Shown here: positions 1 to 32,959 of the stretch, one piece after another | Layout of the letters: the number at the start of each line of letters is the position of its first letter | How positions within the stretch are numbered: position 1 is the stretch's first letter | NCBI GenBank assembly: GCA_000002445.1 | Contig: CH464491.1 | Span: 288,001 to 352,000, forward strand | Direction: 5' to 3' | Source of the DNA: Trypanosoma brucei | Taxonomy: Eukaryota | Length of the DNA: 64,000 nucleotides | Notes under the pieces: model-generated | Database searches by the model: none | What the model was told of the DNA's origin: nothing | The model's input: the letters and a program-made list of their open reading frames with translations, nothing else | Translations under genes and position numbers: made by a program

Positions 1-3000
1 AAGCAGCAATGAACGAGCATTCACATGAGCTTGCTAAACTGAAAGCATCCGATAGCCGCAGCTTCCTTGATCCTATGCCAGAAGGAGTGCCGTTGAGTGA
101 GCTTGAATTGGATAAGGATGAGAAGTTCAGCACCATGGAAGAGGAGCGTCGTAAGCTTATTGCTGAGGATCGTGAAGGTAATGCTGCACGCATTGCTGAA
201 TTAGAAGCAGCAATGAACGAGCATTCACATGAGCTTGCTAAACTGAAAGCATCCGATAGCCGCAGCTTCCTTGATCCTATGCCAGAAGGAGTGCCGTTGA
301 GTGAGCTTGAATTGGATAAGGATGAGAAGTTCAGCACCATGGAAGAGGAGCGTCGTAAGCTTATTGCTGAGGATCGTGAAGGTAATGCTGCACGCATTGC
401 TGAATTAGAAGCAGCAATGAACGAGCATTCACATGAGCTTGCTAAACTGAAAGCATCCGATAGCCGCAGCTTCCTTGATCCTATGCCAGAAGGAGTGCCG
501 TTGAGTGAGCTTGAATTGGATAAGGATGAGAAGTTCAGCACCATGGAAGAGGAGCGTCGTAAGCTTATTGCTGAGGATCGTGAAGGTAATGCTGCACGCG
601 TTGCTGAACTAGAAGCTGCAATGAACGAGCATTCACATGAGCTTGCTAAACTGAAAGCATCCGATAGCCGCAGCTTCCTTGATCCTATGCCAGAAGGAGT
701 GCCGTTGAGTGAGCTAGGATTGGATAAGGATGAGAAGTTCAGCACCATGGAAGAGGAGCGTCGTAAGCTTATTGCTGAGGATCGTGAAGGTAATGCTGCA
801 CGCATTGCTGAACTAGAAGCAGCAATGAACGAGTATTCACATGAGCTTGCTAAACTGAAAGCATCCGATAGCCGCAGCTTCCTTGATCCTATGCCAGAAG
901 GAGTGCCGTTGAGTGAGCTAGGATTGGATAAGGATGAGAAGTTCAGCACCATGGAAGAGGAGCGTCGTAAGCTTATTGCTGAGGATCGTGAAGGTAATGC
1001 TGCACGCATTGCTGAATTAGAAGCAGCAATGAACGAGCATTCACATGAGCTTGCTAAACTGAAAGCATCCGATAGCCGCAGCTTCCTTGATCCTATGCCA
1101 GAAGGAGTGCCGTTGAGTGAGCTTGAATTGGATAAGGATGAGAAGTTCAGCACCATGGAAGAGGAGCGTCGTAAGCTTATTGCTGAGGATCGTGAAGGTA
1201 ATGCTGCACGCATTGCTGAATTAGAAGTTGCAATGAACGAGCATTCACATGAGCTTGCTAAACTGAAAGCATCCGATAGCCGCAGCTTCCTTGATCCTAT
1301 GCCAGAAGGAGTGCCGTTGAGTGAGCTTGAATTGGATAAGGATGAGAAGTTCAGCACCATGGAAGAGGAGCGTCGTAAGCTTATTGCTGAGGATCGTGAA
1401 GGTAATGCTGCACGCATTGCTGAACTAGAAGCAGCAATGAACGAGCATTCACATGAGCTTGCTAAACTGAAAGCATCCGATAGCCGCAGCTTCCTTGATC
1501 CTATGCCAGAAGGAGTGCCGTTGAGTGAGCTTGAATTGGATAAGGATGAGAAGTTCAGCACCATGGAAGAGGAGCGTCGTAAGCTTATTGCTGAGGATCG
1601 TGAAGGTAATGCTGCACGCATTGCTGAACTAGAAGCTGCAATGAACGAGCATTCACATGAGCTTGCTAAACTGAAAGCATCCGATAGCCGCAGCTTCCTT
1701 GATCCTATGCCAGAAGGAGTGCCGTTGAGTGAGCTAGGATTGGATAAGGATGAGAAGTTCAGCACCATGGAAGAGGAGCGTCGTAAGCTTATTGCTGAGG
1801 ATCGTGAAGGTAATGCTGCACGCATTGCTGAATTAGAAGCAGCGATGAACGAGTATTCACATGAGCTTGCTAAACTGAAAGCATCCGATAGCCGCAGCTT
1901 CCTTGATCCTATGCCAGAAGGAGTGCCACTAAATGAGCTTGAATTGGACAAGGATGAGAAGTTCAGCACCATGGAAGAGGAGCGTCGTAAGCTTATTGCT
2001 GAGGATCGTGAAGGTAATGCTGCACGCATTGCTGAACTAGAAGCAGCAATGAACGAGTATTCACATGAGCTTGCTAAACTGAAAGCATCCGATAGCCGCA
2101 GCTTCCTTGATCCTATGCCAGAAGGAGTGCCACTAAATGAGCTTGAATTGGACAAGGATGAGAAGTTCAGCACCATGGAAGAGGAGCGTCGTAAGCTTAT
2201 TGCCGAGGATCGTGAAGGTAATGCTGCACGCATTGCTGAACTAGAAGCTGCAATGAACGAGCATTCACATGAGCTTGCTAAACTGAAAGCATCCGATAGC
2301 CGCAGCTTCCTTGATCCTATGCCAGAAGGAGTGCCGTTGAGTGAGCTTGAATTGGACAAGGATGAGAAGTTCAGCACCATGGAAGAGGAGCGTCGTAAGC
2401 TTATTGCTGAGGATCGTGAAGGTAATGCTGCACGCATTGCTGAATTAGAAGCAGCAATGAACGAGCATTCACATGAGCTTGCTAAACTGAAAGCATCCGA
2501 TAGCCGCAGCTTCCTTGATCCTATGCCAGAAGGAGTGCCGCTAAGTGAGCTTGAATTGGATAAGGATGAGAAGTTCAGCACCATGGAAGAGGAGCGTCGT
2601 AAGCTTATTGCTGAGGATCGTGAAGGTAATGCTGCACGCATTGCTGAACTAGAAGCAGCAATGAACGAGCATTCACATGAGCTTGCTAAACTGAAAGCAT
2701 CCGATAGCCGCAGCTTCCTTGATCCTATGCCAGAAGGAGTGCCGTTGAGTGAGCTAGGATTGGATAAGGATGAGAAGTTCAGCACCATGGAAGAGGAGCG
2801 TCGTAAGCTTATTGCTGAGGATCGTGAAGGTAATGCTGCACGCATTGCTGAATTAGAAGCAGCAATGAACGAGCATTCACATGAGCTTGCTAAACTGAAA
2901 GCATCCGATAGCCGCAGCTTCCTTGATCCTATGCCAGAAGGAGTGCCGTTGAGTGAGCTAGGATTGGATAAGGATGAGAAGTTCAGCACCATGGAAGAGG

Positions 3001-6000
3001 AGCGTCGTAAGCTTATTGCTGAGGATCGTGAAGGTAATGCTGCACGCATTGCTGAATTAGAAGCAGCAATGAACGAGCATTCACATGAGCTTGCTAAACT
3101 GAAAGCATCCGATAGCCGCAGCTTCCTTGATCCTATGCCAGAAGGAGTGCCGTTGAGTGAGCTTGAATTGGATAAGGATGAGAAGTTCAGCACCATGGAA
3201 GAGGAGCGTCGTAAGCTTATTGCTGAGGATCGTGAAGGTAATGCTGCACGCATTGCTGAATTAGAAGCAGCAATGAACGAGCATTCACATGAGCTTGCTA
3301 AACTGAAAGCATCCGATAGCCGCAGCTTCCTTGATCCTATGCCAGAAGGAGTGCCGTTGAGTGAGCTTGAATTGGATAAGGATGAGAAGTTCAGCACCAT
3401 GGAAGAGGAGCGTCGTAAGCTTATTGCTGAGGATCGTGAAGGTAATGCTGCACGCATTGCTGAACTAGAAGCAGCAATGAACGAGTATTCACATGAGCTT
3501 GCTAAACTGAAAGCATCCGATAGCCGCAGCTTCCTTGATCCTATGCCAGAAGGAGTGCCGTTGAGTGAGCTTGAATTGGATAAGGATGAGAAGTTCAGCA
3601 CCATGGAAGAGGAGCGTCGTAAGCTTATTGCTGAGGATCGTGAAGGTAATGCTGCACGCATTGCTGAATTAGAAGCAGCAATGAACGAGCATTCACATGA
3701 GCTTGCTAAACTGAAAGCATCCGATAGCCGCAGCTTCCTTGATCCTATGCCAGAAGGAGTGCCGTTGAGTGAGCTTGAATTGGACAAGGATGAGAAGTTC
3801 AGCACCATGGAAGAGGAGCGTCGTAAGCTTATTGCTGAGGATCGTGAAGGTAATGCTGCACGCATTGCTGAATTAGAAGCAGCAATGAACGAGCATTCAC
3901 ATGAGCTTGCTAAACTGAAAGCATCCGATAGCCGCAGCTTCCTTGATCCTATGCCAGAAGGAGTGCCGTTGAGTGAGCTTGAATTGGATAAGGATGAGAA
4001 GTTCAGCACCATGGAAGAGGAGCGTCGTAAGCTTATTGCTGAGGATCGTGAAGGTAATGCTGCACGCATTGCTGAACTAGAAGCAGCAATGAACGAGTAT
4101 TCACATGAGCTTGCTAAACTGAAAGCATCCGATAGCCGCAGCTTCCTTGATCCTATGCCAGAAGGAGTGCCGTTGAGTGAGCTTGAATTGGATAAGGATG
4201 AGAAGTTCAGCACCATGGAAGAGGAGCGTCGTAAGCTTATTGCTGAGGATCGTGAAGGTAATGCTGCACGCATTGCTGAATTAGAAGCAGCAATGAACGA
4301 GCATTCACATGAGCTTGCTAAACTGAAAGCATCCGATAGCCGCAGCTTCCTTGATCCTATGCCAGAAGGAGTGCCGTTGAGTGAGCTTGAATTGGATAAG
4401 GATGAGAAGTTCAGCACCATGGAAGAGGAGCGTCGTAAGCTTATTGCTGAGGATCGTGAAGGTAATGCTGCACGCATTGCTGAACTAGAAGCTGCAATGA
4501 ACGAGCATTCACATGAGCTTGCTAAACTGAAAGCATCCGATAGCCGCAGCTTCCTTGATCCTATGCCAGAAGGAGTGCCGTTGAGTGAGCTTGAATTGGA
4601 CAAGGATGAGAAGTTCAGCACCATGGAAGAGGAGCGTCGTAAGCTTATTGCTGAGGATCGTGAAGGTAATGCTGCACGCATTGCTGAACTAGAAGCTGCA
4701 ATGAACGAGCATTCACATGAGCTTGCTAAACTGAAAGCATCCGATAGCCGCAGCTTCCTTGATCCTATGCCAGAAGGAGTGCCGTTGAGTGAGCTAGGAT
4801 TGGATAAGGATGAGAAGTTCAGCACCATGGAAGAGGAGCGTCGTAAGCTTATTGCTGAGGATCGTGAAGGTAATGCTGCACGCATTGCTGAATTAGAAGC
4901 AGCGATGAACGAGTATTCACATGAGCTTGCTAAACTGAAAGCATCCGATAGCCGCAGCTTCCTTGATCCTATGCCAGAAGGAGTGCCGTTGAGTGAGCTT
5001 GAATTGGACAAGGATGAGAAGTTCAGCACCATGGAAGAGGAGCGTCGTAAGCTTATTGCCGAGGATCGTGAAGGTAATGCTGCACGCATTGCTGAACTAG
5101 AAGCTGCAATGAACGAGCATTCACATGAGCTTGCTAAACTGAAAGCATCCGATAGCCGCAGCTTCCTTGATCCTATGCCAGAAGGAGTGCCGTTGAGTGA
5201 GCTTGGATTGGATAAGGATGAGAAGTTCAGCACCATGGAAGAGGAGCGTCGTAAGCTTATTGCTGAGGATCGTGAAGGTAATGCTGCACGCATTGCTGAA
5301 CTAGAAGCAGCGATGAACGAGCATTCACATGAGCTTGCTAAACTGAAAGCATCCGATAGCCGCAGCTTCCTTGATCCTATGCCAGAAGGAGTGCCACTAA
5401 GTGAGCTAGGATTGGATAAGGATGAGAAGTTCAGCACCATGGAAGAGGAGCGTCGTAAGCTTATTGCTGAGGATCGTGAAGGTAATGCTGCACGCATTGC
5501 TGAACTAGAAGCAGCGATGAACGAGCATTCACATGAGCTTGCTAAACTGAAAGCGTCATATAGCCGCAGCTTCCTTGATCCTATGCCAGAAGGAGTGCCG
5601 TTGAGTGAGCTTGAATTGGATAAGGATGAGAAGTTCAGCACCATGGAAGAGGAGCGTCGTAAGCTTATTGCTGAGGATCGTGAAGGTAATGCAACACGCA
5701 TTGCTGAATTAGAAGCAGCAATGAACGAGCATTCACATGAGCTTGCTAAACTGAAAGCATCCGATAGCCGCAGCTTCCTTGATCCTATGCCAGAAGGAGT
5801 GCCGTTGAGTGAGCTTGAATTGGATAAGGATGAGAAGTTCAGCACCATGGAAGAGGAGCGTCGTAAGCTTATTGCTGAGGATCGTGAAGGTAATGCTGCA
5901 CGCATTGCTGAACTAGAAGCAGCGATGAACGAGCATTCACATGAGCTTGCTAAACTGAAAGCATCCGATAGCCGCAGCTTCCTTGATCCTATGCCAGAAG

Positions 6001-9000
6001 GAGTGCCGTTGAGTGAGCTTGAATTGGATAAGGATGAGAAGTTCAGCACCATGGAAGAGGAGCGTCGTAAGCTTATTGCTGAGGATCGTGAAGGTAATGC
6101 TGCACGCATTGCTGAACTAGAAGCAGCAATGAACGAGCATTCACATGAGCTTGCTAAACTGAAAGCATCCGATAGCCGCAGCTTCCTTGATCCTATGCCA
6201 GAAGGAGTGCCGTTGAGTGAGCTAGGATTGGATAAGGATGAGAAGTTCAGCACCATGGAAGAGGAGCGTCGTAAGCTTATTGCTGAGGATCGTGAAGGTA
6301 ATGCAACACGCATTGCTGAACTAGAAGCAGCAATGAACGAGCATTCACATGAGCTTGCTAAACTGAAAGCGTCATATAGCCGCAGCTTCCTTGATCCTAT
6401 GCCAGAAGGAGTGCCGTTGAGTGAGCTTGAATTGGACAAGGATGAGAAGTTCAGCACCATGGAAGAGGAGCGTCGTAAGCTTATTGCTGAGGATCGTGAA
6501 GGTAATGCAACACGTATCGCTGAATTAGAAGTTGCAATGAACGAGCATTCACATGAGCTTGCTAAACTGAAAGCATCCGATAGCCGCAGCTTCCTTGATC
6601 CTATGCCAGAAGGAGTGCCACTAAGTGAGCTTGAATTGGATAAGGATGAGAAGTTCAGCACCATGGAAGAGGAGCGTCGTAAGCTTATTGCCGATGATCG
6701 TGAAGGTAATGCTGCACGCATTGCTAGACTTGAGGAGAGGATGAACGAACTTTCCCGTGAACTCGCAAGAATGAAGTTGAAGGATCGCAGCTTCCTCGAT
6801 CCTATGCCAGAAGGAGTGCCGTTGAGTGAGCTTGAATTGGATAAGGATGAGAAGTTCAGCACCATGGAAGAGGAGCGTCGTAAGCTTATTGCTGAGGATC
6901 GTGAAGGTAATGCAACACGCATTGCTGAATTAGAAGCAGCAATGAACGAGCATTCACATGAGCTTGCTAAACTGAAAGCATCCGATAGCCGCAGCTTCCT
7001 TGATCCTATGCCAGAAGGAGTGCCACTAAGTGAGCTTGAATTGGATAAGGATGAGAAGTTCAGCACCATGGAAGAGGAGCGTCGTAAGCTTATTGCCGAT
7101 GATCGTGAAGGTAATGCTGCACGCATTGCTAGACTCGAGGAGAGGATGAACGAACTTTCCCGTGAACTCGCAAGAATGAAGTTGAAGGATCGCAGCTTCC
7201 TCGATCCTATGCCAGAAGGAGTGCCACTAAGTGAGCTTGAATTGGATAAGGATGAGAAGTTCAGCACCATGGAAGAGGAGCGTCGTAAGCTTATTGCTGA
7301 GGATCGTGAAGGTAATGCAACACGCATTGCTGAATTAGAAGTTGCAATGAACGAGCATTCACATGAGCTTGCTAAACTGAAAGCATCCGATAGCCGCAGC
7401 TTCCTTGATCCTATGCCAGAAGGAGTGCCGTTGAGTGAGCTTGAATTGGATAAGGATGAGAAGTTCAGCACCATGGAAGAGGAGCGTCGTAAGCTTATTG
7501 CTGAGGATCGTGAAGGTAATGCAACACGCATTGCTGAATTAGAAGTTGCAATGAACGAGCATTCACATGAGCTTGCTAAACTGAAAGCATCCGATAGCCG
7601 CAGCTTCCTTGATCCTATGCCAGAAGGAGTGCCGTTGAGTGAGCTTGAATTGGACAAGGATGAGAAGTTCAGCACCATGGAAGAGGAGCGTCGTAAGCTT
7701 ATTGCTGAGGATCGTGAAGGTAATGCAACACGCATTGCTGAATTAGAAGCAGCAATGAACGAGCATTCACATGAGCTTGCTAAACTGAAAGCATCCGATA
7801 GCCGCAGCTTCCTTGATCCTATGCCAGAAGGAGTGCCGTTGAGTGAGCTTGAATTGGATAAGGATGAGAAGTTCAGCACCATGGAAGAGGAGCGTCGTAA
7901 GCTTATTGCTGAGGATCGTGAAGGTAATGCAACACGCATTGCTGAATTAGAAGCAGCAATGAACGAGCATTCACATGAGCTTGCTAAACTGAAAGCATCC
8001 GATAGCCGCAGCTTCCTTGATCCTATGCCAGAAGGAGTGCCGTTGAGTGAGCTAGGATTGGATAAGGATGAGAAGTTCAGCACCATGGAAGAGGAGCGTC
8101 GTAAGCTTATTGCTGAGGATCGTGAAGGTAATGCAACACGCATTGCTGAACTAGAAGCAGCAATGAACGAGCATTCACATGAGCTTGCTAAACTGAAAGC
8201 ATCCGATAGCCGCAGCTTCCTTGATCCTATGCCAGAAGGAGTGCCGTTGAGTGAGCTTGAATTGGATAAGGATGAGAAGTTCAGCACCATGGAAGAGGAG
8301 CGTCGTAAGCTTATTGCTGAGGATCGTGAAGGTAATGCTGCACGCATTGCTGAACTAGAAGCTGCAATGAACGAGCATTCACATGAGCTTGCTAAACTGA
8401 AAGCATCCGATAGCCGCAGCTTCCTTGATCCTATGCCAGAAGGAGTGCCGTTGAGTGAGCTTGAATTGGATAAGGATGAGAAGTTCAGCACCATGGAAGA
8501 GGAGCGTCGTAAGCTTATTGCTGAGGATCGTGAAGGTAATGCTGCACGCATTGCTGAATTAGAAGCAGCAATGAAGGAGAATTNNNNNNNNNNNNNNNNN
8601 NNNNNNNNNNNNNNNNNNNNNNNNNNNNNNNNNNNNNNNNNNNNNNNNNNNNNNNNNNNNNNNNNNNNNNNNNNNNNNNNNNNTAAGCTTATTGCTGAGG
8701 ATCGTGAAGGTAATGCTGCACGCATTGCTGAATTAGAAGCAGCAATGAACGAGCATTCACATGAGCTTGCTAAACTGAAAGCATCCGATAGCCGCAGCTT
8801 CCTTGATCCTATGCCAGAAGGAGTGCCACTAAGTGAGCTTGAATTGGACAAGGATGAGAAGTTCAGCACCATGGAAGAGGAGCGTCGTAAGCTTATTGCT
8901 GAGGATCGTGAAGGTAATGCAACACGCATTGCTGAATTAGAAGCAGCAATGAACGAGCATTCACATGAGCTTGCTAAACTGAAAGCATCCGATAGCCGCA

Positions 9001-12000
9001 GCTTCCTTGATCCTATGCCAGAAGGAGTGCCGTTGAGTGAGCTTGAATTGGATAAGGATGAGAAGTTCAGCACCATGGAAGAGGAGCGTCGTAAGCTTAT
9101 TGCTGAGGATCGTGAAGGTAATGCTGCACGCATTGCTGAATTAGAAGTTGCAATGAACGAGCATTCACATGAGCTTGCTAAACTGAAAGCATCCGATAGC
9201 CGCAGCTTCCTTGATCCTATGCCAGAAGGAGTGCCGTTGAGTGAGCTTGAATTGGATAAGGATGAGAAGTTCAGCACCATGGAAGAGGAGCGCCGTAAGC
9301 TTATTGCTGAGGATCGTGAAGGTAATGCAACACGCATTGCTGAATTAGAAGTTGCAATGAACGAGCATTCACATGAGCTTGCTAAACTGAAAGCATCCGA
9401 TAGCCGCAGCTTCCTTGATCCTATGCCAGAAGGAGTGCCACTAAGTGAGCTAGGATTGGACAAGGATGAGAAGTTCAGCACCATGGAAGAGGAGCGCCGT
9501 AAGCTCATTGCTGAGGATCGTGAAGGTAATGCAACACGCATCGCTGAATTAGAAGTTGCAATGAACGAGTATTCACATGAGCTTGCTAAACTGAAAGCAT
9601 CCGATAGCCGCAGCTTCCTTGATCCTATGCCAGAAGGAGTGCCACTAAGTGAGCTTGAATTGGACAAGGATGAGAAGTTCAGCACCATGGAAGAGGAGCG
9701 TCGTAAGCTCATTGCTGAGGATCGTGAAGGTAATGCAACACGCATTTGTCGCTTGGAAAGGAAAATGGGGAGGCGTGTTGATAAGCTGGCTAAACTGAAA
9801 GCGTCATATAGCCGCAGCTTCCTTGATCCTATGCCAGAAGGAGTGCCACTAAATGAGCTTGAATTGGATAAGGATGAGAAGTTCAGCACCATGGAAGAGG
9901 AGCGTCGTAAGCTCATTGCTGAGGATCGTGAAGGTAATGCAACACGCATTGCTGAATTAGAAGTTGCAATGAACGAGCATTCACATGAGCTTGCTAAACT
10001 GAAAGCATCCGATAGCCGCAGCTTCCTTGATCCTATGCCAGAAGGAGTGCCACTAAGTGAGCTTGAATTGGATAAGGATGAGAAGTTCAGCACCATGGAA
10101 GAGGAGCGTCGTAAGCTTATTGCTGAGGATCGTGAAGGTAATGCAACACGCATTGCTGAATTAGAAGAGTGTATGAGTGCTCGAGTTCGGAATTTGGCTA
10201 TTTGTAAGTCTACTTTAGGTGGAGTGATTGTTGATGAGAGAATTGGTCTTGTTCCTTTGTATTTGTTACCGTTGGGGGAGGATTCGGTTTTGAGTTCGTT
10301 GACTTCTAAATTGGAATCTATGCGATGTGGTGGGTGTTTACCCGATAGTGTTGCTGTGCGTGATATCCAAGAACAAATTATATGTCGAGTAGAGAAATTG
10401 GCAGAAGTGTATTTAGAACATGAACTTGATTTTCTGGAAACTGTTGACGGAATTTCTGTTTCTCAGATCGCACTTTCTGATGACAAGGTGTTTTGTGAAA
10501 TGCAGCGGTCGTTGCGCCAGTTGAGAAAAAGTCCGGTAAGAAATGCAGAAGCCATACGGGATATTGAGTATGCGATGAATAATATCGTTCGTGAACTGTC
10601 GTCAAAACTATTACTGGAGGATTGTAGTTACCTGAATCAGTGTCCTCACGGCGTACCTCTTGCTGACTTACCGCTGGATAATCGGTTATTTCGCGAGATT
10701 GAATTGAAGAGAAGAAGATTAAAAGAGGATGACCCGTTAAAAAATGCGACGAGGATTAGAGAGTTGGAGATGAAATTGAATGATCATGCCGAGCGTTTGG
10801 CCGCGCTTATGTTAAGTGAGGAACGTGCTTTTCTTGAGCCATGCTCGCACGGTCTTCCCCTTAGTCGCCTTCAGTTGGGAGAGGATTCTTCCTTTCTTGC
10901 AATGGAAAGGGAAAGAAGGAAGTTATTGCGTGAAGGGGGTAAAGACAAAAACCGTATCAGGTATCTCGAAGAATGCATGAGGGAACATGTCAGCAATGTC
11001 GCCCTCTCTCTAATTTCCTGGCAGGATGTTCAATTTCATGAAGCTAACCATTCTGTAGCGGAGATGTGGCCGCGAATCGGTGAGTTGTACCCTGAAGGAA
11101 TCCGAAACTCTGTGTTTCCGGAAATAACACAGCCGGGCGATACTTCATCTGCGCCTGGTGAACTTGGCTATTTAGCACCTTTCATTGCCGCTCTCAGTCA
11201 ACACCCGCCTCTAATTCATCGGCTTCTGGAAACGAAAACACATCCCGTTAATGGTCCATATTCTTTCATCTTTTTTGATCCGAACAGCAACCCTGTTCGT
11301 GTTGACATTGATGACCGTGTGCCAGTGGATGCGAAGTGTGAGCCCAAGTTTACACGCGTGCCACACCGGTCTTGGTACCCGCTGCTGCTGGAGAAGGCAT
11401 ATGCGAAGTTTGTTGGTGGGTACGCAAAGCTCGACCAGTGCACACCACACGAAACCCTCCATGACCTAACGGGCCGTCCAGTGACACATATCCCTTTTGA
11501 TGAGAAGCGAGCAGATGGAATCAAAATTGGGGACTTCCGATCTGTGAAATTCTGGAAGGGGATTAAAAGGGATCTTGCGGCTGGAGATGTTATTATGGCA
11601 ATGACGAACGGTAGTGTTCCCGACGGCCTTCACTCTCAATGTAGTTACGCTCTCCTTAGTGTAATCGAAACTGTGCATGAATCGAATGATGTCTCTGACA
11701 TCGTGATCAAATTACACAACTGCTACTACGATAGCCCGACATACGACGGCCCACTGTGTAACGATGATGATAACTGGACCGATGGTTTGAAGAGACTTTG
11801 CCATTATAATCCTGAGGAGGATGCACTTTACATACCTGTTCCTGTGTTTCTGCGTAACTTCTCGAGCATGCAGCGCTGTCACATAAACTGTGGCGACCGT
11901 CTGACTGCGCCTGGTGAGTGGACTGGGGTAAGCTGTGGAGGAAACCCGAAGTTCACAACTTTCCGGAACAACCCCATCTATCTTGTGGAAAACAAAACCT

Positions 12001-15462: not shown

Positions 15463-18400
15463 ATGAATTACCAAGCAATTACCGAAATTCCAGATAGCAA
15501 TACGATATTCCATGACACCATTTTTATGAGAAACAACAAACACGTCTCGGAGCAATGGATTCGTATTGGCGAATTGTACCCCAATGGTGCGAAGGAATCA
15601 TTGCTCCCGGAGACGTTTGCACGCGAACAGTTCGGACAAGGAAGTCACTATGAGTGCTTCATGCTTTCTGCCCTCGCCACTTTAGTAAAATTCCCCGACA
15701 TCATTCGGAACTGCTTCGTGTCGAGGAATGTGCGGCGTGACGGGAGGTACACTTTTCAGTTCTTTCGTGACAAGGAATGGGTGAAGGTTGAAATTGATGA
15801 CTCTGTTATGCTTGAGGATGATGAAGTTTTGTTCATCCGATCACCCACTAGTCATTGGTGGCCGCTACTGTTTGAGAAGGCTTATGCGAAATTCTACACC
15901 AGCTACGACAATTTGGAGGGTTGTACCTTACAGGAGGCGTACCATGACTTAACTGGCAACCCCGTGCTCAACATCCCCATGGACGCGAGGCTTGCCAAGG
16001 CTGCAGGTGTGGATGTGACTGGAGGTCAGTATTGGCTTGACCTCGCACAGAAGCTGCAATCCGGCCAGTTTGTTGGTTCGCTGCTGACGAGGGAAACGGA
16101 CCTTGAGTCGATGGGCTTGCAGAGTGAGCAACAATACGGGATACTAGAGATTTTTTCGCTAACTGGGACATCATCTGTAAGCGACATTGTGATTCACCTA
16201 TACAACCCATTCGAGGACGAGGAATTCACGTACAAAGGCCCGCTGAACAGTAAGGACACGGAGTGGACCCCCAAACTCCGTGAAAAGTATAACGTGGATG
16301 ATACGCACTCCATATTTCTTCCGCTACACGTTGCCCTGAAGATCGTAAATTCGGTGCAACTTTGCTACATATCCCCTATTGATGGTGACGCGACGTATTT
16401 TGATGATGAGTGGAAGGGTGAAACTGCGGGAGGGAACCCCACGAGTGTAACATGGCGCAAGAACCCCCTATACTGCGTCAGGAACGCTGGGATCAACCCC
16501 GTGGAACTGGTTGTCGTGATTAAGCAGAAGGATCAACGACGTTACATGTCTTCTGAGGAGCGAACCATGTACCTTCAATGTGGCATTGTTGTTGTTCAGA
16601 GTACCACAGTCACACAAATACCGACATATTTTGTAACAGGGAACAATCACAAAGCAATACACAAGAGTTTGTTCCTAAACTCTCGTGAAGTGTCCAGTTT
16701 CGTTCGGATACCACCTAATTCCTTGTGCTACCTTGTACCTTCTTGCATGAAGAAGGGAGCGGAGAGTGCATTTACGCTCGCACTGTACCGAGTGAAACTT
16801 CAAGACTACAGCAATATTCTGATTAAGAAACTTGAGGTCCCCTCTATGGATTGGGGACATTGTGCCATTGGAAAGGTTACGTTGGAAACAAAAGTGAAGG
16901 AACGGGTTGATTTTTTTGTTGACTGCCCTACTGACATTCACATTTTGATGCATCAAGAAAAACCGTTTGTGAACAAAGTTGGTGGTGATATTACAACTCG
17001 GGATTACGTTGGTGTCTACCTTTATGATGACACGGACCGTAAGATTGGAGGTGTGCACGCTGCGACGAATTTCAGGGAAACAAGTGTCTTGCATCGCCTT
17101 CCTCGTAGTGGTCGTTATGCTATTTCAATTACGTGTCCCCGGGCAAGTGGTGAAGTACCCATTGCTCTCACAATTGTTGGTTCTCCTGATGCTAATGTTC
17201 GTATTGTTGAGGCTCCTGATGATGCCTCCATGTTTGATGATGAGGATGATATTGCAGAGGGTGATGAGGATGCTACTGTTTCTAATCCCATTGACTACAT
17301 TCCTGTTGCTGGTGGAGGGCAGGTGTTCACTGAGGTACCCGATAGTACGGTCCCATTTGAAGATAAACGTTTCATGGTTGATAATAAGATTATGACGAAT
17401 GAACCGTGGATCCACATTGGTGACCTTTATCCTGAGGGAAAGACGCGCTCACTTTTGCCGGAGCGTCTGAGTCGTGAGCAGTTTGAGCAGGGTGAACACT
17501 TCGAGTGCTGTTGTCTGACCGCTTTTGCAGCGCTGGTGGAGCACCACCCCAACGTAATTCGTGACGCGTTTGTGACGAAGGCTGTACGACGTGACGGACG
17601 GTACACGTTCCGGTTCCACCGCTACGGTCAGTGGGTGAAGGTGGAGATTGATGATCGTATTCCCCTTCTTGGTGGGAAAACTTTATTCTGTCGATCATCT
17701 GATGGTTATTGGTGGCCACTACTACTAGAGAAGGCGTATGCTAAGTTCTACACACTATACCAAAATATTGAGGGATGTACGCTGCGGGAACTGTTTTACG
17801 ACCTAACAGGGCTTCCTGTGCTTAGCATTCCGATGGAGTTGAAACTCGCGAAGGCTGTACTGTGTGATGTTGATGATGTGAGTTTTTGGGTTGAGCTCAG
17901 TGAGGGTCTGAAGGATTGTGCGTGTGCTGCCGTTGCACGCCCCGGTTTCGATGACACCCTTGGTTTGTCCAATGGGCAAGAGTACGCTGTCCTTGATGTG
18001 GTATCGTTAACGGATGGTGAGGCCTCTTCCATATCTGATCTTGTTGTAAAACTTCATAATCCGTTTCTGGAGACTGAGTACAAAGGCCCTATGAATGCAA
18101 GCGATGCTGCGTGGTCGTCTGAGCTGCGTACCCGTCTATGTCCGGAGCGACGGGATACTATCTACATTCCCGTGGAAGTTTTCTGCAATGCATTTCTCAC
18201 TGTGGAGAAAGTTATGGTGCGTGGTCTTATTGTTCCCGGGTGGCAATTCAACAGTGAATGGGGTGAGGGCACGAACGGTGGCAATCCAACACTTGTGACG
18301 TGGCGTGAGAACCCCATTTACGTTGTGCAGAACACTGCGGATACCCCGTTACAGATTATTGCAATGATTGGGCAACCTGATCAGCGTCGCGTGCTACACC

Positions 18401-21400
18401 TTCTCCCCGAGCAAGAGGTAAACTATGTTCAATGTGGGTTGGTTCTTTCTCAGTGTACATGTAGCAATCCTGTACCAACATATTTGGTGACGAGTAACAA
18501 CCATCGTGTTGTGCACAAGGGTCTGTTCGTGAACTTTCGTGAGTCGGCGAATATTGTTACCATTCCAGCTAACTCTATGTCGTACCTAATTCCAAGCGCG
18601 ATGTTTCGTGACAAAACGAAGTTTCTTCTCTCATACTGGTTTCAAAAATTGCCTGACATGAAATTTATCAAAATCAGTCGTATCAATGTGAGTGTTGCGC
18701 GGTCACTACCTGCAATTGAGCACCTTGAGCTGCATAACCATGAAAAGAAACGCGTGGATTTTCTGGTTGATGTTCCCACTGATATTCACATTCTGCTTCG
18801 TCAGGAGAAACCTTGTGTGACGGTCCGTACGCACGATGCTATGGCTGATGACTTCCTAGGGATATATCTGTACAACGAGGATGAAAAGCGTATTGATGGT
18901 GTGACCGCTGCGACGAACTACAGGGAAATGGGGCTTGTTCACCGGCTTGCCACTGCGGGGAGATACGCTCTGTCGATCACGTGTCCTCGGGGAACCGGTG
19001 TTGTGCCGTGCCGTGTGGAGATCGTTGGCGTGGAAGATGCGAAGGTGCGTATCACCGACCCACCTGAGGATGCTGGTAATCTGTGTGAGGTTGACCTTCG
19101 CTTTCTGGGTTCTGAAGCTGAGGGTGTGCCTCTTGAAGACCTTCCGCTCGATAGTGACGCCGATTTGCAAGCTATATTGGAAGAACTGAGACGCCTGCAC
19201 GGAGACATTGATGCGAATGCTGAGCCAATTGCAAAACATGAGAGGATGATGAGTGACCGAGTTCATAAGATGGCGAGGCAGCTTCTTGCTAAGGATCGTT
19301 CGAAGTACTTACCAGGATACGATCTTCAAACGGTTAATTCCATACTTGACGCGGAGCCACATTTTGTCGTTTTAGAGCGCGATCGGTACCACCTAAAGGG
19401 TGATCCCAGGAATGCCACGAAGGTTCGGAATGTAGAGAGAAGCCTTCTTACTCTCGCTAATGAAATTCTGGAAAAACACGATGACCCTGACTTATCTTTC
19501 CTTGGAGCCGAGGTGGAAGGAATTCCCACCCTGGATCTCACTCTGATGAGCGACTCTTCATTTTCTGAGATGGCACGTGAGCGCATGCAATTAAAGCGGG
19601 ATCCCATTGCTAATGCGAGTCGTTTGGCTGAGGTTGAAGATAGTATGGTGGCACGTGCGAATGCTATTGCCAAGGAGATGCATTTGAGAGAGCGGCGATA
19701 TCTGAACCCTGAGCCTGAGGGTGTCCCCCTTGAGTTGCTTCCTTTAAACGAGGACGAAGTTGTGAGTGAGAAGGAGGACCGCCTCCGTGCGCTGAATCGT
19801 AAGGAGCGAAAAGACGAGAAACTGTTACGGAGTCTTGAGGACGTGATAGCGGACCGTGTACACGAGATCGCGAGGGAGCTGAAGCTGAGTGAACGTGATC
19901 TGTTCCTTGATCCCACTCCAGGAGGTTTCCCTGTAGCGCAGCTTCCGCTGGACGAAGACGATGTGTTTCATTCACTCGAAGTGGAGCGACTGCAACTGCG
20001 ACTGCGTCAGGATTCCCTTGCGAATAAGACATCAGAGATCAAAGAACTTGAAAGTTGGTTGAACCGTCGAGCGTGTGAACTTGCGCGTGTGAAGGTAGAG
20101 GAGGGTCGAGCGTTTCTAGACCCTGAACCTCTGGGGTTCCCACTTACCGACCTTAACCTTGACGGAGATAGTGAGTTTGTCAAGCTGGAATCGGAACTTC
20201 GTAAGTTGCGTTGGGAGCCGCGTGTGAACAGCACTGCTATGAGGACTGTGGAGGAGGATATTGCTCGCGTTGTATACCGCATAGCACTGAGGAAAACGTG
20301 TCTCGATCGTGACTATCTTGACGCGGAATATGAGGGTCGACCTGTGCAGGGGTTGCCTCTGAATGATAGTAAGGAGGTGCTTGCGATGGAGACGAGGCGC
20401 CGGGTGTTAATTAACGCGAAGGCTGACCGTGACGAAATCGGTGTTGCAGAGAATATGATACGTGATGCTGTGCGTGAGATCGCTCGCGCTCTGAATGTGG
20501 GCGAGCGCTTGGACTACTTGGAGCCATGCCCAAGAGGTGTCCCTGTAGAAGACCTCCCCCTTGACATGGATACGGAATTCCACGAGCTTGAGGTGCATCG
20601 GCAACGTCTCAAGTGTGATGCGAAGAAACAGGACACAGTAATAATGGATGTGGAGCGTGCACTGAATGATCGTGCGGAAGCCCTTGCGAGGGAGCACTTG
20701 TCGAGTGACCGTGGTTACTTGGACCCAGCATCTGTTGGTGTGCCGCTTCGTTTGCTACCACTTGATAGCGATAGTGTGTTCCAGGAGCTTGAAATTAAAC
20801 GTGCGCTACTGAAGAAGAACCCTCAGAGGAACGGACGTGCCATCTCGGCTTTGGAGGGTGGCCTGAACGAGCGTGCACACGTTCTTGCTACGGAAATGAA
20901 GCACGCGGAGCGATCGAAATTTATGGACCCTAACCCTGGTGGTATTGCCATTGAGGATGTTCCTATTGATAACGACGAGGTTTTTTGTGATCTTGAAATT
21001 CGTCGGTTTGGTTTGTGCGAGGACCCGCATGCTAATATAGCAGCGATACGAAATCTTGAAGATGCGATGAATGAGAGGGTGATCGAACTGGCTGATAAGA
21101 TGCGTTGTGAGATCCGCATGTTTCTGGACCCGATGCCATTGGGGGTGTCCTTAGATGAGCTGCCCCTTGACAATAACGAGAGCTTTGTTGCGAAAGAAGC
21201 TGAACTGCACAAGCTTCGGAAGGACCTGCGGGCAAATGGTGCCGATGTTGCTTTGCTGAAGTCTGACTTGAACGAGTTAGCCAAGCAGATGGCGGCGGAG
21301 ATGATTTCTAAAGATCGTGCTTTTCTCTTCCCTGAGCCTGAGGGTCGTCTACTGGAGGAATTGCCTCTAGATAGCGATAAGGAGTTTCGTTCTCTTGAAA

Positions 21401-24400
21401 AGCAACTACGGCTTCTTTGTAAGGAGTCTCCTCCTGAGGCACAGAAAATTGCTGCCATTGAGGAGTTGCTGGATGGTCGTGCGCATCAGCTTGCTAAAAT
21501 GAAGAACTGTGCGGAGCGGAAGGATTACCTGATTTCTCACCCTTGTGGTGTACCTTTGGATGATGTGCCACTGGACAATGACGATGAATTTTCGATGCTT
21601 GAAGTGAAACGAGCTGCGCTAATGCGTGACGTGGTGGGTAACAAGGACTCAATTGCCAGTGTGGAGAAGGCCCTGAATGGGCGAGCGGAAAAGCTTGCGT
21701 TGTTAAAGTTGCGTAGTGAGAGGTCGTTTCTCGATCCTGAGCCTCATGGCATCCCATTGCATTGTGTACCTCTTGATGATGATGATAACTTTCATTTGCT
21801 AGAGGTGGAGCGCTTGACATTGAAGGGTCTGAACATTCGCGAGAATGATCGTAAGTTGGTGGGTGTGGAAAATGCCATGAGGGACTACGTGAATGATTTA
21901 GCCCTTGAGGTGAAGCGAAAAATGAGAGAGGATGTTCTTGACACCTCACCTGATGGTCTTCCGTTGTCGGTGCTTCCTCTTGACAATGACTTACCGTTTA
22001 TTGAGTTGGAGAATGGATACATTAAAGCTGTTTTTGATGCTAAGGATACTTTGAAAATCCAGGACCTTGCAGGGGCGATGCGAAGACGTTCTGAGGACAT
22101 AGCACGTAAGCTGCGAAGTGATGTGAGGTTATCTCTCGAGCAACACCCACTCGGCTTTACTCTAGACGAGCTTCCCGTTGACGATAGTGAATTATTCTTG
22201 GGAAAAGAAAGGGAACTTCTAGAGTTGAAGCAAGATGGAAGATACAATTCCCCAACTGCTATTGAAATCATGGAGGAGCTTAACAGTATCATTTTGGACA
22301 TTGCCAAAGAACAAGCAATTAGAGAGCGCGAATTCCTTGACCAAGAACCGGAAGGTCGACATATCACTGAGTTGAATCTCGATAGCGATACGACATTCCT
22401 CGGGTTAGAAAGGCAGAGGAGATTACTCAAGAAGGATCCGTTTGCTGATCGCAGTAGGATTGTAGACTTGGAACAAATGCTTAACGATCGTTCGCACGAA
22501 CTGGCGAAAAAGCTCAACTCCCTAGATCGACCTAAATTCCTTCCCGTCGCCATACGTGGTGTGTTACTGTCTGAACTTCCCCTTGACAGCGATGCTGAAT
22601 TTACCCGACTTGAAGTTGAGCGCAGCTCTCTCTATCGCGATCCCGTACGAAACGCATCAACAATAAACCATGTGGAGGAAGCCTTGAATATCCGAGTAGC
22701 GGCTATGGCCGACGAAGTTGTCCGCCAGGATCGAATGTTCTTGGGCGAGGATGTTGAAGGTGTTTGTGTGCGTCACTTACCTCTTGATGATGACGCAGAG
22801 TTTCGTGCCCTAGAAACCAAGAGGGCGACATATAAAAGTTGTGGTTCTCGCATGGGCACGAAGGCTATCAAAGACCTTGAGGATCAGCTGGGAGATCGTG
22901 CAGCTGAGCTCGCCCGCACTGCAAAGAAGGAACTTCGCAACCTTCTCGGTACAGAACCCCTTGGTGTCCCACTCAGTGATCTACCAATTGATGTGGATGG
23001 TCGGTTTCGTGCGCTTGAAGACAATTATCGTGATCTTTCTCGTAACTCTGCGAACGGAGGGAAGCTTTGTGAGATTATTCTACAGTTGAACGAACGTGCG
23101 CTTGAACTGGCGGCGGAGTTGCACACCAAAGAGCGAGTTGTGCTAAGTCAATGTCCTGGAGGTATTCCACTGTCTGCACTTGCGCTGAATGAAGATGAAA
23201 TGTTCAAAGCTCTCGAAACGGAAGCTCGGAAGCTTAGGCATAGTACTGCTGGTCGAGGTCGCAACGCCGCTCGTATTTCTGAACTTGAGAGCGCGATGAA
23301 TGAGCGGGCGATGGAACTGGCGAACCAGTTGCGTAGGACATACTGCGACGCCGCTCCTGAGGGGATTCCACTGGAGCTACTTGGCTTGGGAGGGGTGGAG
23401 GAGTTTACGAAACTTGAAGATGCCTTGCGTGATGCGACGAAGGACCCCGTGAAGAATCGTGAGATAATAAGTGACATTGAGTTTGAACTGAACAGCCGTG
23501 CACACGTTGCTGCGATGGGACTTCTGGAAGGCGACCGCGATTACCTTGAATGTGAAACCATGGAAGTACCACTTTCTGATTTGCCTCTGAATACGGACAG
23601 TGTTTTTCGTGCGCTTGAGGTGGAGCGAGCGGTGCTGAAGTTGAGAGAACCTCACCGTGGCGCTCGTAGAGTCCGGGAGTTGGAGTTGAAACTCGTCGAG
23701 CGTGCTCACAGGCTTGCGGAAGAACTGAAAGAGGAGGATCTGAGTGGTCTTGATGGTGAGCCTGAGGGTGTATCATTACGTGCACTGAAACCACACAACG
23801 ACTCTTTGTTCAGTGAGTTTGTTGGAGCGATGCGAAAACTGAAAAGGGGACCGAAGAGAAACACTGTTGCTATTGAGGAATTGCGGGAGCGTATGAACGA
23901 GCGTGCGCACGAGTTGGCACAGGAAAAATTGAAGGATGACCGGGAGTTTCTGGATCAGTGTCCGGAGGGTGTTCCGCTTAGTGACCTTCCCTTGGGTACA
24001 GATCCTCTTTTCCACAAGCTGGAGACGGAACGCGCGAGGTTGAAGGAGCGTGACGCTGCTCGGAACATAACCCACATCCACGAACTTGAGAGTCGTCTGA
24101 AGGAGCGCGCAGTTGAGCTGGCAAATGAACAGAAAGGTCGTGATTTGAGCGAACTGGAGCAGTCGCCGTGCGGCGTGCCTATATATATCCTGCAGTTACA
24201 CGATGATCCCGTGTTGCAGAAGATGCTGAACAAAATGCGTGGATTGAGGAACCGCGGCGTCACTGGTCCCGAGTTTGTCGCACTCATTGATGAAATAAAC
24301 AACTGTGCGAGGGACGCTGCCGAGGAGCTACTGCTGCGGGACCGTGAGTACCTTGAACCTGAACCTCTCGGTGTACCACTGAGCCTTCTATCACTCACAA

Positions 24401-27400
24401 CGGACACTGTGTTTCATGGTCTGGAAGTGCAGCGTGCGGTGCTCAAGGCGCAAAATGCACGTCGGAACGCAGCGAAGATTTCTGATTTTGAGATGCGTTT
24501 AAATGAACGTGCTGTGCAACTGGCAGAAGTGCAACGGCAGCGGGAGCTGGAGGGGCTTGATCCCGAACCTGAGGGTATTCCTATATCTGTGCTTAATCCT
24601 CACGGAGATGTGGAATTTATTAAGCTTGTAACTGAGTTGCGTCAATTGTGTAGTGAGGGCAATAATGAGGGCATGTGTGATGTGCTGAAGACCACGATGA
24701 ACGACGTTGTGCATGCTCTGGCGAAGCGATTGAAGGAGGGAGATCGTGGCTACCTCGACCCTGAGCCCGAGGGTGTTCCGCTGTGTGTGCTGCCGTTGGA
24801 CACTGATGTGTTGTTTTTTAGGCTAGAGTGTGAACGTGTGACTCTGAAGGCACGTAATGCGCACTTAAACGCGAGGAGAATATGTGAGTTGGAGGACGCA
24901 CTCAATAACCGTGCAGTGGAACTTGCTCGCGAGCAACTGCGGCAGGACGTTAATGGTGTGGACGAGGCGCCGTGCGGTATTCCTCTGCAGCTGCTACGAC
25001 TTCACGAGGACAGTACCTTTCTTGTGATGGTGGATGATATTCGCACCCTAAGGAAGAATCCGGATGCTAACAGCGAGGCGATTGACGCCGTTGTCATGTC
25101 CATGAATGATCGCGCCTATGACGTTGCGATAGCTCAATTTGACCGTGGTTTCCTTGATCCTGAACCCGAGGGCGTTCCATTATGTATTTTGCCACTGGAT
25201 GACGATGAGTTGTTCCATGGTATGGAGGTGGAGCGGATTAAACTGAAGCTTACTGATGCGCGTCGCAATGCGCAGACGATTGGCACACTGGAGGAAGAAA
25301 TGAATGGCCGCGCACACGAACTCGCATTGCAGCAGTTGCGTGAGGAGCTTTCCGGTATTGATGCGGCACCTGAAGGCATTCCCTTGTCATTGTTGAGGGT
25401 GATGGAAGACCCTGCCTTTGCACTGATGGTGCTGGAGTTGCGTGACCTCAAGAAGGGCACCCAGGGTAATGCGGAACGGATTCGGGAGGTGGAGGACGCT
25501 ATGAACAACCGCGCTTACGAACTCGCGGATGGGCTGCTGGAGGGTGATCGCAGCTATCTAGACCCTATTCCCCTCGGCGTACCCGTCTCGGAACTTCCCT
25601 TGTGTTCCGACGAACCGTTTGCCACTATGGAGGTTGAACGAGCGAGGTTGAAGGCCGAAGACGCACGACGGAATGCAGCAGGGATTGGAGAACTTGAGTT
25701 GAAACTTAACAACCGCGCGAAGGAACTTGCGTCTGAACAACTATTACGTGATTTGGAAGGATTCCACGACGAGTATGAAGGGATTGACCTTGCGCACCTG
25801 AGGCCACACGACGACAAAGAATTTGTCTCCCTTGTACCGGAATTACGGAGGTTGAAAAGAGATGGTGACAAGGAAGCTGTTGAGCAACATATGCGCAGCA
25901 TGGATAGGCGCTTACGTGAGCTTGCGAAAGAGCTTGTTGGTGGTGATCTTTGGTTTCTTGACAAGGAACCGGAGGGTGTTCCCTTGACGTACTTACCTTT
26001 GGATGGGGACGAGATTCTCGACAAATTGCGCCATGAACGAGCTCAACTAAAGATACAAGATCCGCGGGGGAATGCTGACAGAATTGCGGAACTTGAGAGG
26101 AAAATGAATGAACGTATTCATGATCTAGCGAGGTGTATAGGAGATGAGGATTTTGATGGTGTTGAGGGAGAGCCTTGTGGCATTCCGTTGAGTTTACTCT
26201 CTCCTAGAGATGATGAGGTTGTTGCAAAACTTATCAATGACATTCGTAAAGTGAAATATTCTACAGGGGAGAAAAGCTCGAATGGTGCGCTGAATAACTT
26301 GCAGGTTGAACTTAGCAAACGTGTACACCAACTAGCAGAGGATGTTTTAATAAGAGACAGGGTGAAGTACCTAAACCAGTGCCCAGAAAGTGTTGATATA
26401 TCTTTTCTTCCCCTTAGTACTGACGAACAGTTTCGTGCCTTGGAGTTGGAGCGGGTCATTATTAATATCCAATCGAACGGTGACGACAAACGTTTGGACG
26501 GCTTAGAAGATATGCTTAACAAGAGAGCGCATGAGCTTGCAAAGGAACAGCTGCAGGAGGACCTAAGAGGACTGGAACAGGCTCCCCATGGTGTTCCACT
26601 TGACGTTCTTAAACCCCACAGCGACTTACGATTCATTAAAGAGGCGGAACAGCTACGGAACTTAAAAAGAGACCCGCTTCGTAATAAGAGGGAGATAGAT
26701 GACCTTGTGGAGCAAATGAATAATACTGTTGGTGAACTTGCCCTGAACTTACTACGTAGCGATCGTGACTACTTGCATTTGGCTCCTGAGGGAGTACCGA
26801 TTGAAGAGCTTCCACTGGAGGTCGATGCAAAGTTTTGTGCTTTGGAGGCGGAGCGTGCAATGTTAAAAGGCGAGAACAACCCGAAGAATGCGAGTATGAT
26901 ATTATCTTTGGAAGAGAAATTAAATGAGCGTGCTCGCCAGCTGGCTCAAGAGCAACTACTGGAAGACCTGAAGGAATTGAGTTCTTTTCAGCATTGTGTT
27001 CCTCTCTCACTTTTATCGCCTCATACTGACGTTCAGTTTGCTGCTGATGTTGCTGAATTTCGACGACTGAAAAAAGAAGGGGAGCAAAACACCCCTGCCA
27101 TTCAGGGCGTTGTCGGGAGACTTAACGCACGTGCGAATGAGCTCGCGGAAGAGTATTTGCGTACCGATCGCGCATCGTATCTTAACCCTGAACAACTTGG
27201 TGTGCCACTTGACTTGCTATCTTTGGACACAGACTCTGAGTTCGTGTCACTGGAAGCTGAGAGGCTAAAATTGTTGTCCTATCCGGCGGTTAACAATGAG
27301 CAAATAACTCGTTTGGAAGCTGAGTTGAATGCATGTGCCAAAAAATTGCTTGTTAAAAGATTGTATAAAGAAAGGAATTATCTGGATAGGGATCCACTTG

Positions 27401-32859: not shown

Positions 32860-32959
32860 NNNNNNNNNNNNNNNNNNNNNNNNNNNNNNNNNNNNNNNNN
32901 NNNNNNNNNNNNNNNNNNNNNNNNNNNNNNNNNNNNNNNNNNNNNNNNNNNNNNNNNNN
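32860..32959. other. Assembly gap (100 N)
   Basis: Run of n. The flanking sequence has an ambiguous base (n at 33011) and a 1-nt indel relative to its duplicate. Confidence 0.95.

Follow-up and report, generated by a model that had tools for sequence, protein, structure and literature searches.

Unequal crossing-over gives rise to higher-order repeats such as those of alpha-satellite, and coding minisatellites are subject to concerted evolution. The GM6 repeats of Trypanosoma brucei were reportedly treated by Muller et al. in 1992. They belong to ClpGM6, a protein of the flagellum attachment zone, and form an array of 55-60 units or more, with 90-100% identity between units (Hayes et al. 2014, PMC4121973). 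Here, we analysed a stretch of 64,000 nucleotides (nt) from chromosome 11 of T. b. brucei TREU927 (contig CH464491.1 of assembly GCA_000002445.1, positions 288,001 to 352,000, forward strand; hereafter the window), in which the GM6 array of the ClpGM6 gene contains two copies of an odd, shortened repeat unit of 67 amino acids (aa), set 405 base pairs (bp) apart. We consider it probable that this variant is a rare relic unit, old in the Trypanozoon array, that was locally duplicated together with a canonical neighbour in TREU927.

The gene in question (gene 1) is annotated in two pieces, Tb11.57.0008 and Tb11.47.0036; its open reading frame (ORF) enters the window from the left and ends at 12914. 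Its identity with ClpGM6 follows from the match of the ORFs before and after an assembly gap to the TREU927 proteins XP_828202.1 and XP_828203.1 and from the presence of the antibody peptides. XP_828202.1 (5795 aa; P0078) stops with ...AAMKEN at the gap, which is the end of the pre-gap translation, the post-gap ORF is XP_828203.1 (1409 aa; P0083), and both ClpGM6 antibody peptides, KASDSRSFLDPMPE and ERRKLIAEDREGN, are found in canonical units. The C-terminus contains a Peptidase_C2 domain (75.5 bits, Pfam). Tandem Repeats Finder describes the array with a period of 204, 42.1 + 7.3 copies and 93-96% matches. Its interior is homogenised and its edges are diverged: neighbouring units are 97-100% identical and, apart from the variant, units lie 0-14 sites off the consensus. 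DUF7623 (PF24610) is recognised across the array at 137-139 bits, and the variant also qualifies as a member, since a dimer of variant and canonical unit reaches 136.9 bits against 138.6 bits for a canonical dimer and a cut-off of 27. The last 8 bases ahead of the gap (aaggagaatt) are already off-repeat.

Throughout the array the anchor CCTATGCCAGAAGG recurs at a spacing of 204 bp, with the exception of two spacings of 201 bp at 6600 and 7005, which mark the two variant units (Table 1). The initial annotation had described two copies of a variant segment exactly 405 bp apart, and indeed the window contains ccgatgatcg at 6691 and 7096 and at no other place; the anchor spacing likewise bears out its pairing of a 201-bp variant with a canonical 204-bp unit in each block, and its translation of the variant (...IADDREGNAARIARLEERMNELSRELARMKLKDRSFLDPMPEG...) is correct. 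A single base separates the variant units (T at 6731, C at 7136). Between the blocks as originally delimited (6537-6941 and 6942-7346), 6 of the 405 positions differ (6731, 6821, 6822, 6824, 6937 and 6938), and a comparison at lag 405 over 6534-7024 yields just 6 mismatches. Five of these lie in two clusters and are ordinary array polymorphisms, namely a 3-nt patch at 6821-6824 in which one common array haplotype gives way to another and a CA/TT difference at 6937-6938, at the junction; the sixth is the point change at 6731. The block junctions are near this polymorphic CA/TT site, which corresponds to unit positions 137-138. Two further changes, at unit positions 93 and 96 and resulting in E>D, are private to the 405-bp pair: GCCGATGATCGTGAAGG, a 17-mer that includes ADD, was found in the window at 6690 and 7095 only and nowhere in the ClpGM6 gene of T. 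b. equiperdum, and the C and T at 6692/6695 and 7097/7100 are missing from both the T. b. equiperdum copy and a third copy in TREU927. Because both variant units carry these private substitutions, they are sister copies, and they descend from one local two-unit duplication. The proposal of a joint duplication of the 201-bp and the 204-bp unit as one block thus holds, given the shared private substitutions and the six mismatches at lag 405. The period does not extend any further: it is limited to two copies and breaks after ~7097, no array-wide higher-order period was detected (mean mismatch is flat over lags 1-20), and the pair falls short of a sustained higher-order repeat, which would run through at least three periods or the whole array.

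Table 1. Coordinates of the array, the variant units and associated features in the window
Feature	Position	Strand	Remarks
GM6 array of ClpGM6 (gene 1)	1..10235	+	204-bp / 68-aa units; passes left edge of window; gap inside
Variant unit 1 (201 bp, 67 aa; register from PMPEG)	6600..6800	+	201-bp anchor spacing, consensus alignment
Variant unit 2 (201 bp)	7005..7205	+	Anchor spacing, consensus alignment
Best-fitting duplicated two-unit block	6534..7343	+	6534-6938 copied to 6939-7343; from lag-405 mismatches
Private substitutions gcT>gcC, gaG>gaT (E>D, 'ADD'), unit 1	6692..6695	+	Recur at 7097/7100 in unit 2
Diverged core, unit 1	6726..6797	+	27 substitutions in 72 aligned sites, 3-bp deletion; encodes RLEERMNELSRELARMKLKDRSFL
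Diverged core, unit 2	7131..7202	+	Consensus alignment
100-N assembly gap	8584..8683	.	Within array; joins the two annotated ClpGM6 fragments
Second mosaic variant unit (...NATRICRLERKMGRRVDKLAKLKASYS...)	9624..9827	+	Third from 3' end of array; 33 differences from consensus, clustered at unit positions 122-183
Gene 2, calpain-like paralogue	15463..32859	+	64 degenerate 62-68 aa DUF7623 units; donor proposed in the initial annotation

A second genome carries the same core. The PacBio assembly of T. b. equiperdum OVI (GCA_003543875.1) is ungapped here, with indel errors, and its ClpGM6 gene was rebuilt from two loci, L001 (CM010682.1 257210-277602) and L002. The resulting array comprises 78 units with exactly one variant core (L001 11377-11481; 98% identical, 2 mismatches), which is situated ~21 units short of the array's 3' end and reads AED, not ADD. 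The initial annotation had asked for a check of the 405-bp block in other strains or isolates, and no such pair is present among these 78 units. In both equiperdum and TREU927, the core is located near a transition from an 'NAA' to a 'NAT/ASYS/V' haplotype. TREU927 possesses a third variant copy upstream of the window (XP_828202.1, aa 2381-2447), again with AED, ~1.6 kb before the first base of the window and in about the 11th array unit; the equiperdum array is without a counterpart. In proteins of T. b. gambiense DAL972 (P0074, P0018) the variant was not found, but the array is collapsed to few units there, so that its absence carries no weight. As the same core stands single in the ungapped equiperdum array, the variant unit is real and older than the duplication, and it predates the split of the TREU927 and equiperdum lineages. 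The 405-bp pair, by contrast, is a strain-level duplication that was made later, in the TREU927 lineage, because the ADD substitutions mark the pair alone. The annotation breaks the equiperdum array up into more than 15 separate short genes, and many of its units are 200-203 bp long, which looks like single-base PacBio indel errors that break the frame.

The mosaic unit close to the 3' end of the array provides a comparison. Its RLERKMGRRVDK variant occurs once in the window (9624) and three times in equiperdum (L001 13321, 14341 and 15154), spaced 5 and 4 units apart, and this subterminal type (RIC/GRLERKMGRRVDKLAKLKASYS) is also present in T. b. gambiense DAL972 (P0018). Within the window, another multi-unit duplication is visible as a 611-bp exact match at lag 612, i.e. 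three units (3174-3784 versus 3786-4396). Multi-unit duplications are common in this array, given this match and the triplicated subterminal variant of equiperdum. Long exact matches at lags of 14 and 15 units also exist close to the window start (107-599 and 1-404).

This bears on a rival explanation of the pair, that one real variant unit was written twice during assembly, either by placing alleles in series or by misjoining Sanger reads. The gap in the same array, the likely collapse of the repeat region (PMC4121973) and the single copy in equiperdum would all fit such an error. However, the copies are not the same, with 1 nt of difference in the variant units and 5 nt in the accompanying canonical units, and the two tracts together span 511 bp, which is within one Sanger read, so that the assembler would have needed reads with both. 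Moreover, other variants were duplicated over several units in the ungapped equiperdum array. We therefore regard an artefact as unlikely.

The variant unit is a mosaic whose left 90-126 nt are canonical, while its right part is diverged. All of its private changes (29 substitutions and a 3-bp deletion) fall within unit positions 93-201, and set against the 0-14 differences of other units they do not form a chance pattern. Positions 1-92 have none, and the three differences there represent the ACTA haplotype that is common among canonical units. The bulk, 27 substitutions and the 3-bp deletion, is concentrated in positions 127-201, and this is the only part in common with the independent genome (6726-6797 and 7131-7202). 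Over codons 30-67, the Nei-Gojobori comparison of variant and canonical unit results in 1.06 synonymous (dS) and 0.20 nonsynonymous (dN) substitutions per site, hence a dN/dS of ~0.19, with dS estimated from ~24 synonymous sites. Synonymous changes amount to 13.5 of 29, compared to 21.5% expected under random mutation (binomial P ~0.001-0.004).

At the protein level, the predicted consequences are confined to one structural element. An AlphaFold2 model of a dimer of variant and canonical unit, computed with gene-2 dimers as alignment, reached a mean predicted local distance difference test (pLDDT) score of 88.8. Each unit is predicted to fold as a helical hairpin, with helix 2 formed by residues 36-58, and the diverged core would swap the whole of helix 2 and the start of the linker, with the deleted residue at the end of helix 2. 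The segment goes from a net charge of -2 with two histidines in the canonical unit to +2 with no histidine in the variant, and the variant is devoid of the epitope KASDSRSFLDPMPE, having KLKDRSFLDPMPE in its place.

Where might such a tract have come from? The initial annotation placed the variant closer to the degenerate repeat consensus of the neighbouring gene 2 than to the homogenised array unit and suggested an import by gene conversion. Ectopic exchange is clear at this locus, with 95% identity over 865 nt between the C-termini of genes 1 and 2 and 100% over 638 nt between the ends of gene 2 and of the tract following it (32960-37993, here gene 3), and over the 27-aa core the variant scores 74 with its best gene-2 unit (IEELRERMNERAHELAQEKLKDDREFLD, from 23761) and 73 with the canonical unit. 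Yet the canonical core itself scores 77 with its best gene-2 unit, so that the three scores are nearly level, as for an old separate lineage that is a copy of nothing present, and a wider patch of 37 aa, which matches the canonical unit at 25 of 37 positions, reaches at most 18 of 37 with any gene-2 unit, so the claimed proximity to gene 2 does not stand. A hidden Markov model (HMM) built from gene-2 units alone has no preference for the variant either (31.0 bits for the canonical patch, 30.7 bits for the variant patch). Gene-2 units are 30-40% identical among themselves, and none of the 64 is a near-identical donor of the core: the best has 57.7% nt identity in codon-aligned comparison and the mean is 43.9%, close to the 42.1% mean of the canonical core, while variant and canonical core share 59-62% nt. 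A blastn search of the patch against the whole window returned a best gene-2 match of 67.7% over 65 nt. The best core score in gene 3 is 49, and gene-2 fragments of equiperdum are no closer than gene 2 itself (score 74). In the unit comparison that the initial annotation had proposed, read through nearest-neighbour bootstrap counts only, 476 of the 500 replicates for the patch and 489 of 500 for the full unit had a gene-1 array unit as the nearest neighbour of the variant, and import is refuted. There is no donor in gene 2 or gene 3, recent conversion from either of them is highly improbable, and the suggestion of repeat-unit exchange between ClpGM6 and its degenerate-repeat neighbour is removed.

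The same bootstrap counts would suit the alternative named for that comparison, i.e. point mutations that accrued in place within a single unit. This fails on the distribution and quality of the changes. All 27 substitutions and the indel of the core are inside 75 of 204 positions (P ~1e-12 per window position), synonymous changes are about twice the random expectation at a dN/dS far below one, and neighbouring units have strayed just 0-14 nt from the consensus. Divergence in place is thus hardly credible. Because of the synonymous excess and the sharply bounded tract, the core is rather an old coding lineage with a long independent history.

Age does not translate into an ancestral character. 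The string given in the initial annotation for the T. cruzi FRA/H49 repeat, MNARAQELAREKKLADRAFLDQKPEG, does occur in T. cruzi proteins, and in local alignment the variant core is slightly nearer to it (score 72) than the canonical core (61); other outgroups reverse the order (66 versus 89 for protein P0010, 73 versus 83 for Phytomonas P0005). When the 12 differing residues are held against gene-2 column frequencies, ~5 favour the variant and ~4 the canonical unit. For T. congolense, the only sequence found was a gene-2-like fragment (P0034). The core appears to be about as far from the outgroups as the canonical core, with no consistent ancestral signal. Nor does any of the ClpGM6 edge units, N-terminal (XP_828202.1, aa 1250-1670) or C-terminal, resemble it.

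The core could also stem from an import, ancient or recent, whose donor lies outside the window and would be either a divergent ClpGM6 allele or population variant homogenised to this type, or a paralogue that has been lost. A dS of about 1 under purifying selection implies a long separate coding existence, which is easier to imagine outside a homogenising array, and the differing left boundaries of the three copies (ADD versus AED) would fit repeated conversion tracts. On the other hand, when 1.84 billion representative proteins were scanned in full with HMMER, the best core score outside T. brucei ClpGM6 was 77, compared to 129 for the core itself, although this counts weakly, since close relatives are merged in the library and the array is resolved in few Trypanozoon assemblies. 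A word-indexed protein search gave one 130-aa equiperdum fragment for the two-unit block and nothing for a 64-aa variant query, which is uninformative because the index misses such repeats. An outside donor seems a doubtful source, and for the origin of the old core a relic unit is favoured.

The following scenario would account for these observations. A rare 67-aa unit type was already part of the Trypanozoon array, its left part canonical and its right 72 nt belonging to a deeply diverged coding lineage of the same repeat. Most likely, the core persists as a relic that escaped full homogenisation and that is spread and partly overwritten by the unequal exchange and conversion which also homogenise the array. 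In the TREU927 lineage, one variant and the adjacent canonical unit (405 bp) would then have been duplicated in tandem, the likely route being out-of-register exchange or replication slippage with an offset of two units, to be followed by a single point change and a short patch that resembles conversion.

Several points weigh against this scenario. The main caveat is the assembly quality of the TREU927 array, which dates from the Sanger era, is gapped and probably collapsed (PMC4121973), so that unit order and copy number may be inexact, and the presence of both variant tracts on one molecule is taken from this assembly. Only one other array, that of equiperdum, was compared, the gambiense array being collapsed, and the synonymous sites behind dS are few. 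Furthermore, a relic must have escaped homogenisation for long enough to reach a dS of ~1 while its neighbours attained 97-100% identity; such a long escape is an awkward requirement and keeps an unsampled donor in play.

A different view of the rare mosaic units, both the RLEERMNELSRELARMKLKD type and the subterminal RLERKMGRRVDK type, would see them as selected positional 'punctuation' across Trypanozoon or as traces of a second diverged allele class of ClpGM6, for which we see a slim chance. If punctuation were true, the ClpGM6 array would be functionally non-uniform, and the variant helix 2, 4 charge units more basic and bereft of both histidines, could serve the flagellum attachment zone as a separate site of binding or registration along its length. 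The functional effect of 2-3 odd units among ~70 is, however, probably negligible. Likewise, the effect on GM6 serology and antibodies should be negligible, with KASDSRSFLDPMPE missing in 2-3 of ~70 units. With the relic unit as the preferred reading, the 'near-perfect' ClpGM6 array has a few old mosaic units that are common to T. b. brucei and T. b. equiperdum, and the core offers a unique 72-nt landmark, in an array that otherwise defies assembly, for strain typing and assembly checks, its copy number and spacing differing between genomes, with three copies in TREU927 (including the pair) and one in equiperdum OVI.

Some observations concern the neighbouring paralogues in their own right. 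The C-terminal calpain-domain tracts of genes 1 and 2 are 95% identical (11019-11876 versus 32002-32859), and this tract begins exactly at the end of the repeats (WQDVQFHEANHS...). The first N-terminal degenerate repeats are near-identical as well (XP_828202.1 aa ~1250-1430 versus gene 2 aa ~1330-1520). The two genes have homogenised flanks and central repeats that are unrelated in detail. Gene 2 is followed by a second 100-N gap (32860-32959), and a single N is found at 33011. The stretch 32960-33605 matches gene 2 at 26631-27277 with 99.5% identity, and 36321-36958 is 100% identical to 32222-32859, directly ahead of the second gap. The segment 32960-37993 is either a third paralogue, with ~17 degenerate units and a calpain-like C-terminus, or the result of overlapping or allelic contigs placed in series. 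Units 23-48 of gene 2 (~23566-28800) have a two-unit periodicity of ~134 aa, with a mean identity of 37-39% at even lags and 31-32% at odd lags, in which 'LPLD...DL.G.D'-type units alternate with 'L.PH.D...DR.YLD'-type units. The alternation of variant and canonical unit in ClpGM6 was considered as a similar dimeric periodicity and rejected, as both units end in the ...RSFLD subtype and have identical left halves.

Among described systems, the GM6 repeats of ClpGM6 (PMC4121973) are the same gene, with 68-aa units, antibody peptides, calpain-like C-terminus and TREU927 proteins all in agreement; the 67-aa variant, its mosaic structure, the 405-bp duplication and the occurrence in equiperdum are not described in PMC4121973 or PMC3808341. 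The DUF7623 repeats of genes 2 and 3 belong to the same family, with a helical-hairpin unit and, through conversion or recent duplication, flanking domains in common with gene 1, but differ from the GM6 array in being degenerate, and no unit of theirs donates the variant core. The calpain-like H49/FRA repeat of T. cruzi (MNARAQELAREKKLADRAFLDQKPEG...) represents an orthologous family with the same motif skeleton, and both it and the variant have LEE, ELAR, L and a D-R adjacency, although the similarity to the variant is just modest. In higher-order repeats of the alpha-satellite type, as in the pair, a variant-marked block recurs at an exact multi-unit period. Unlike an established higher-order repeat, ClpGM6 has two periods only, made by a single local duplication, and the pair represents ordinary concerted-evolution turnover, by local multi-unit duplications and short conversion tracts, in a known gene.

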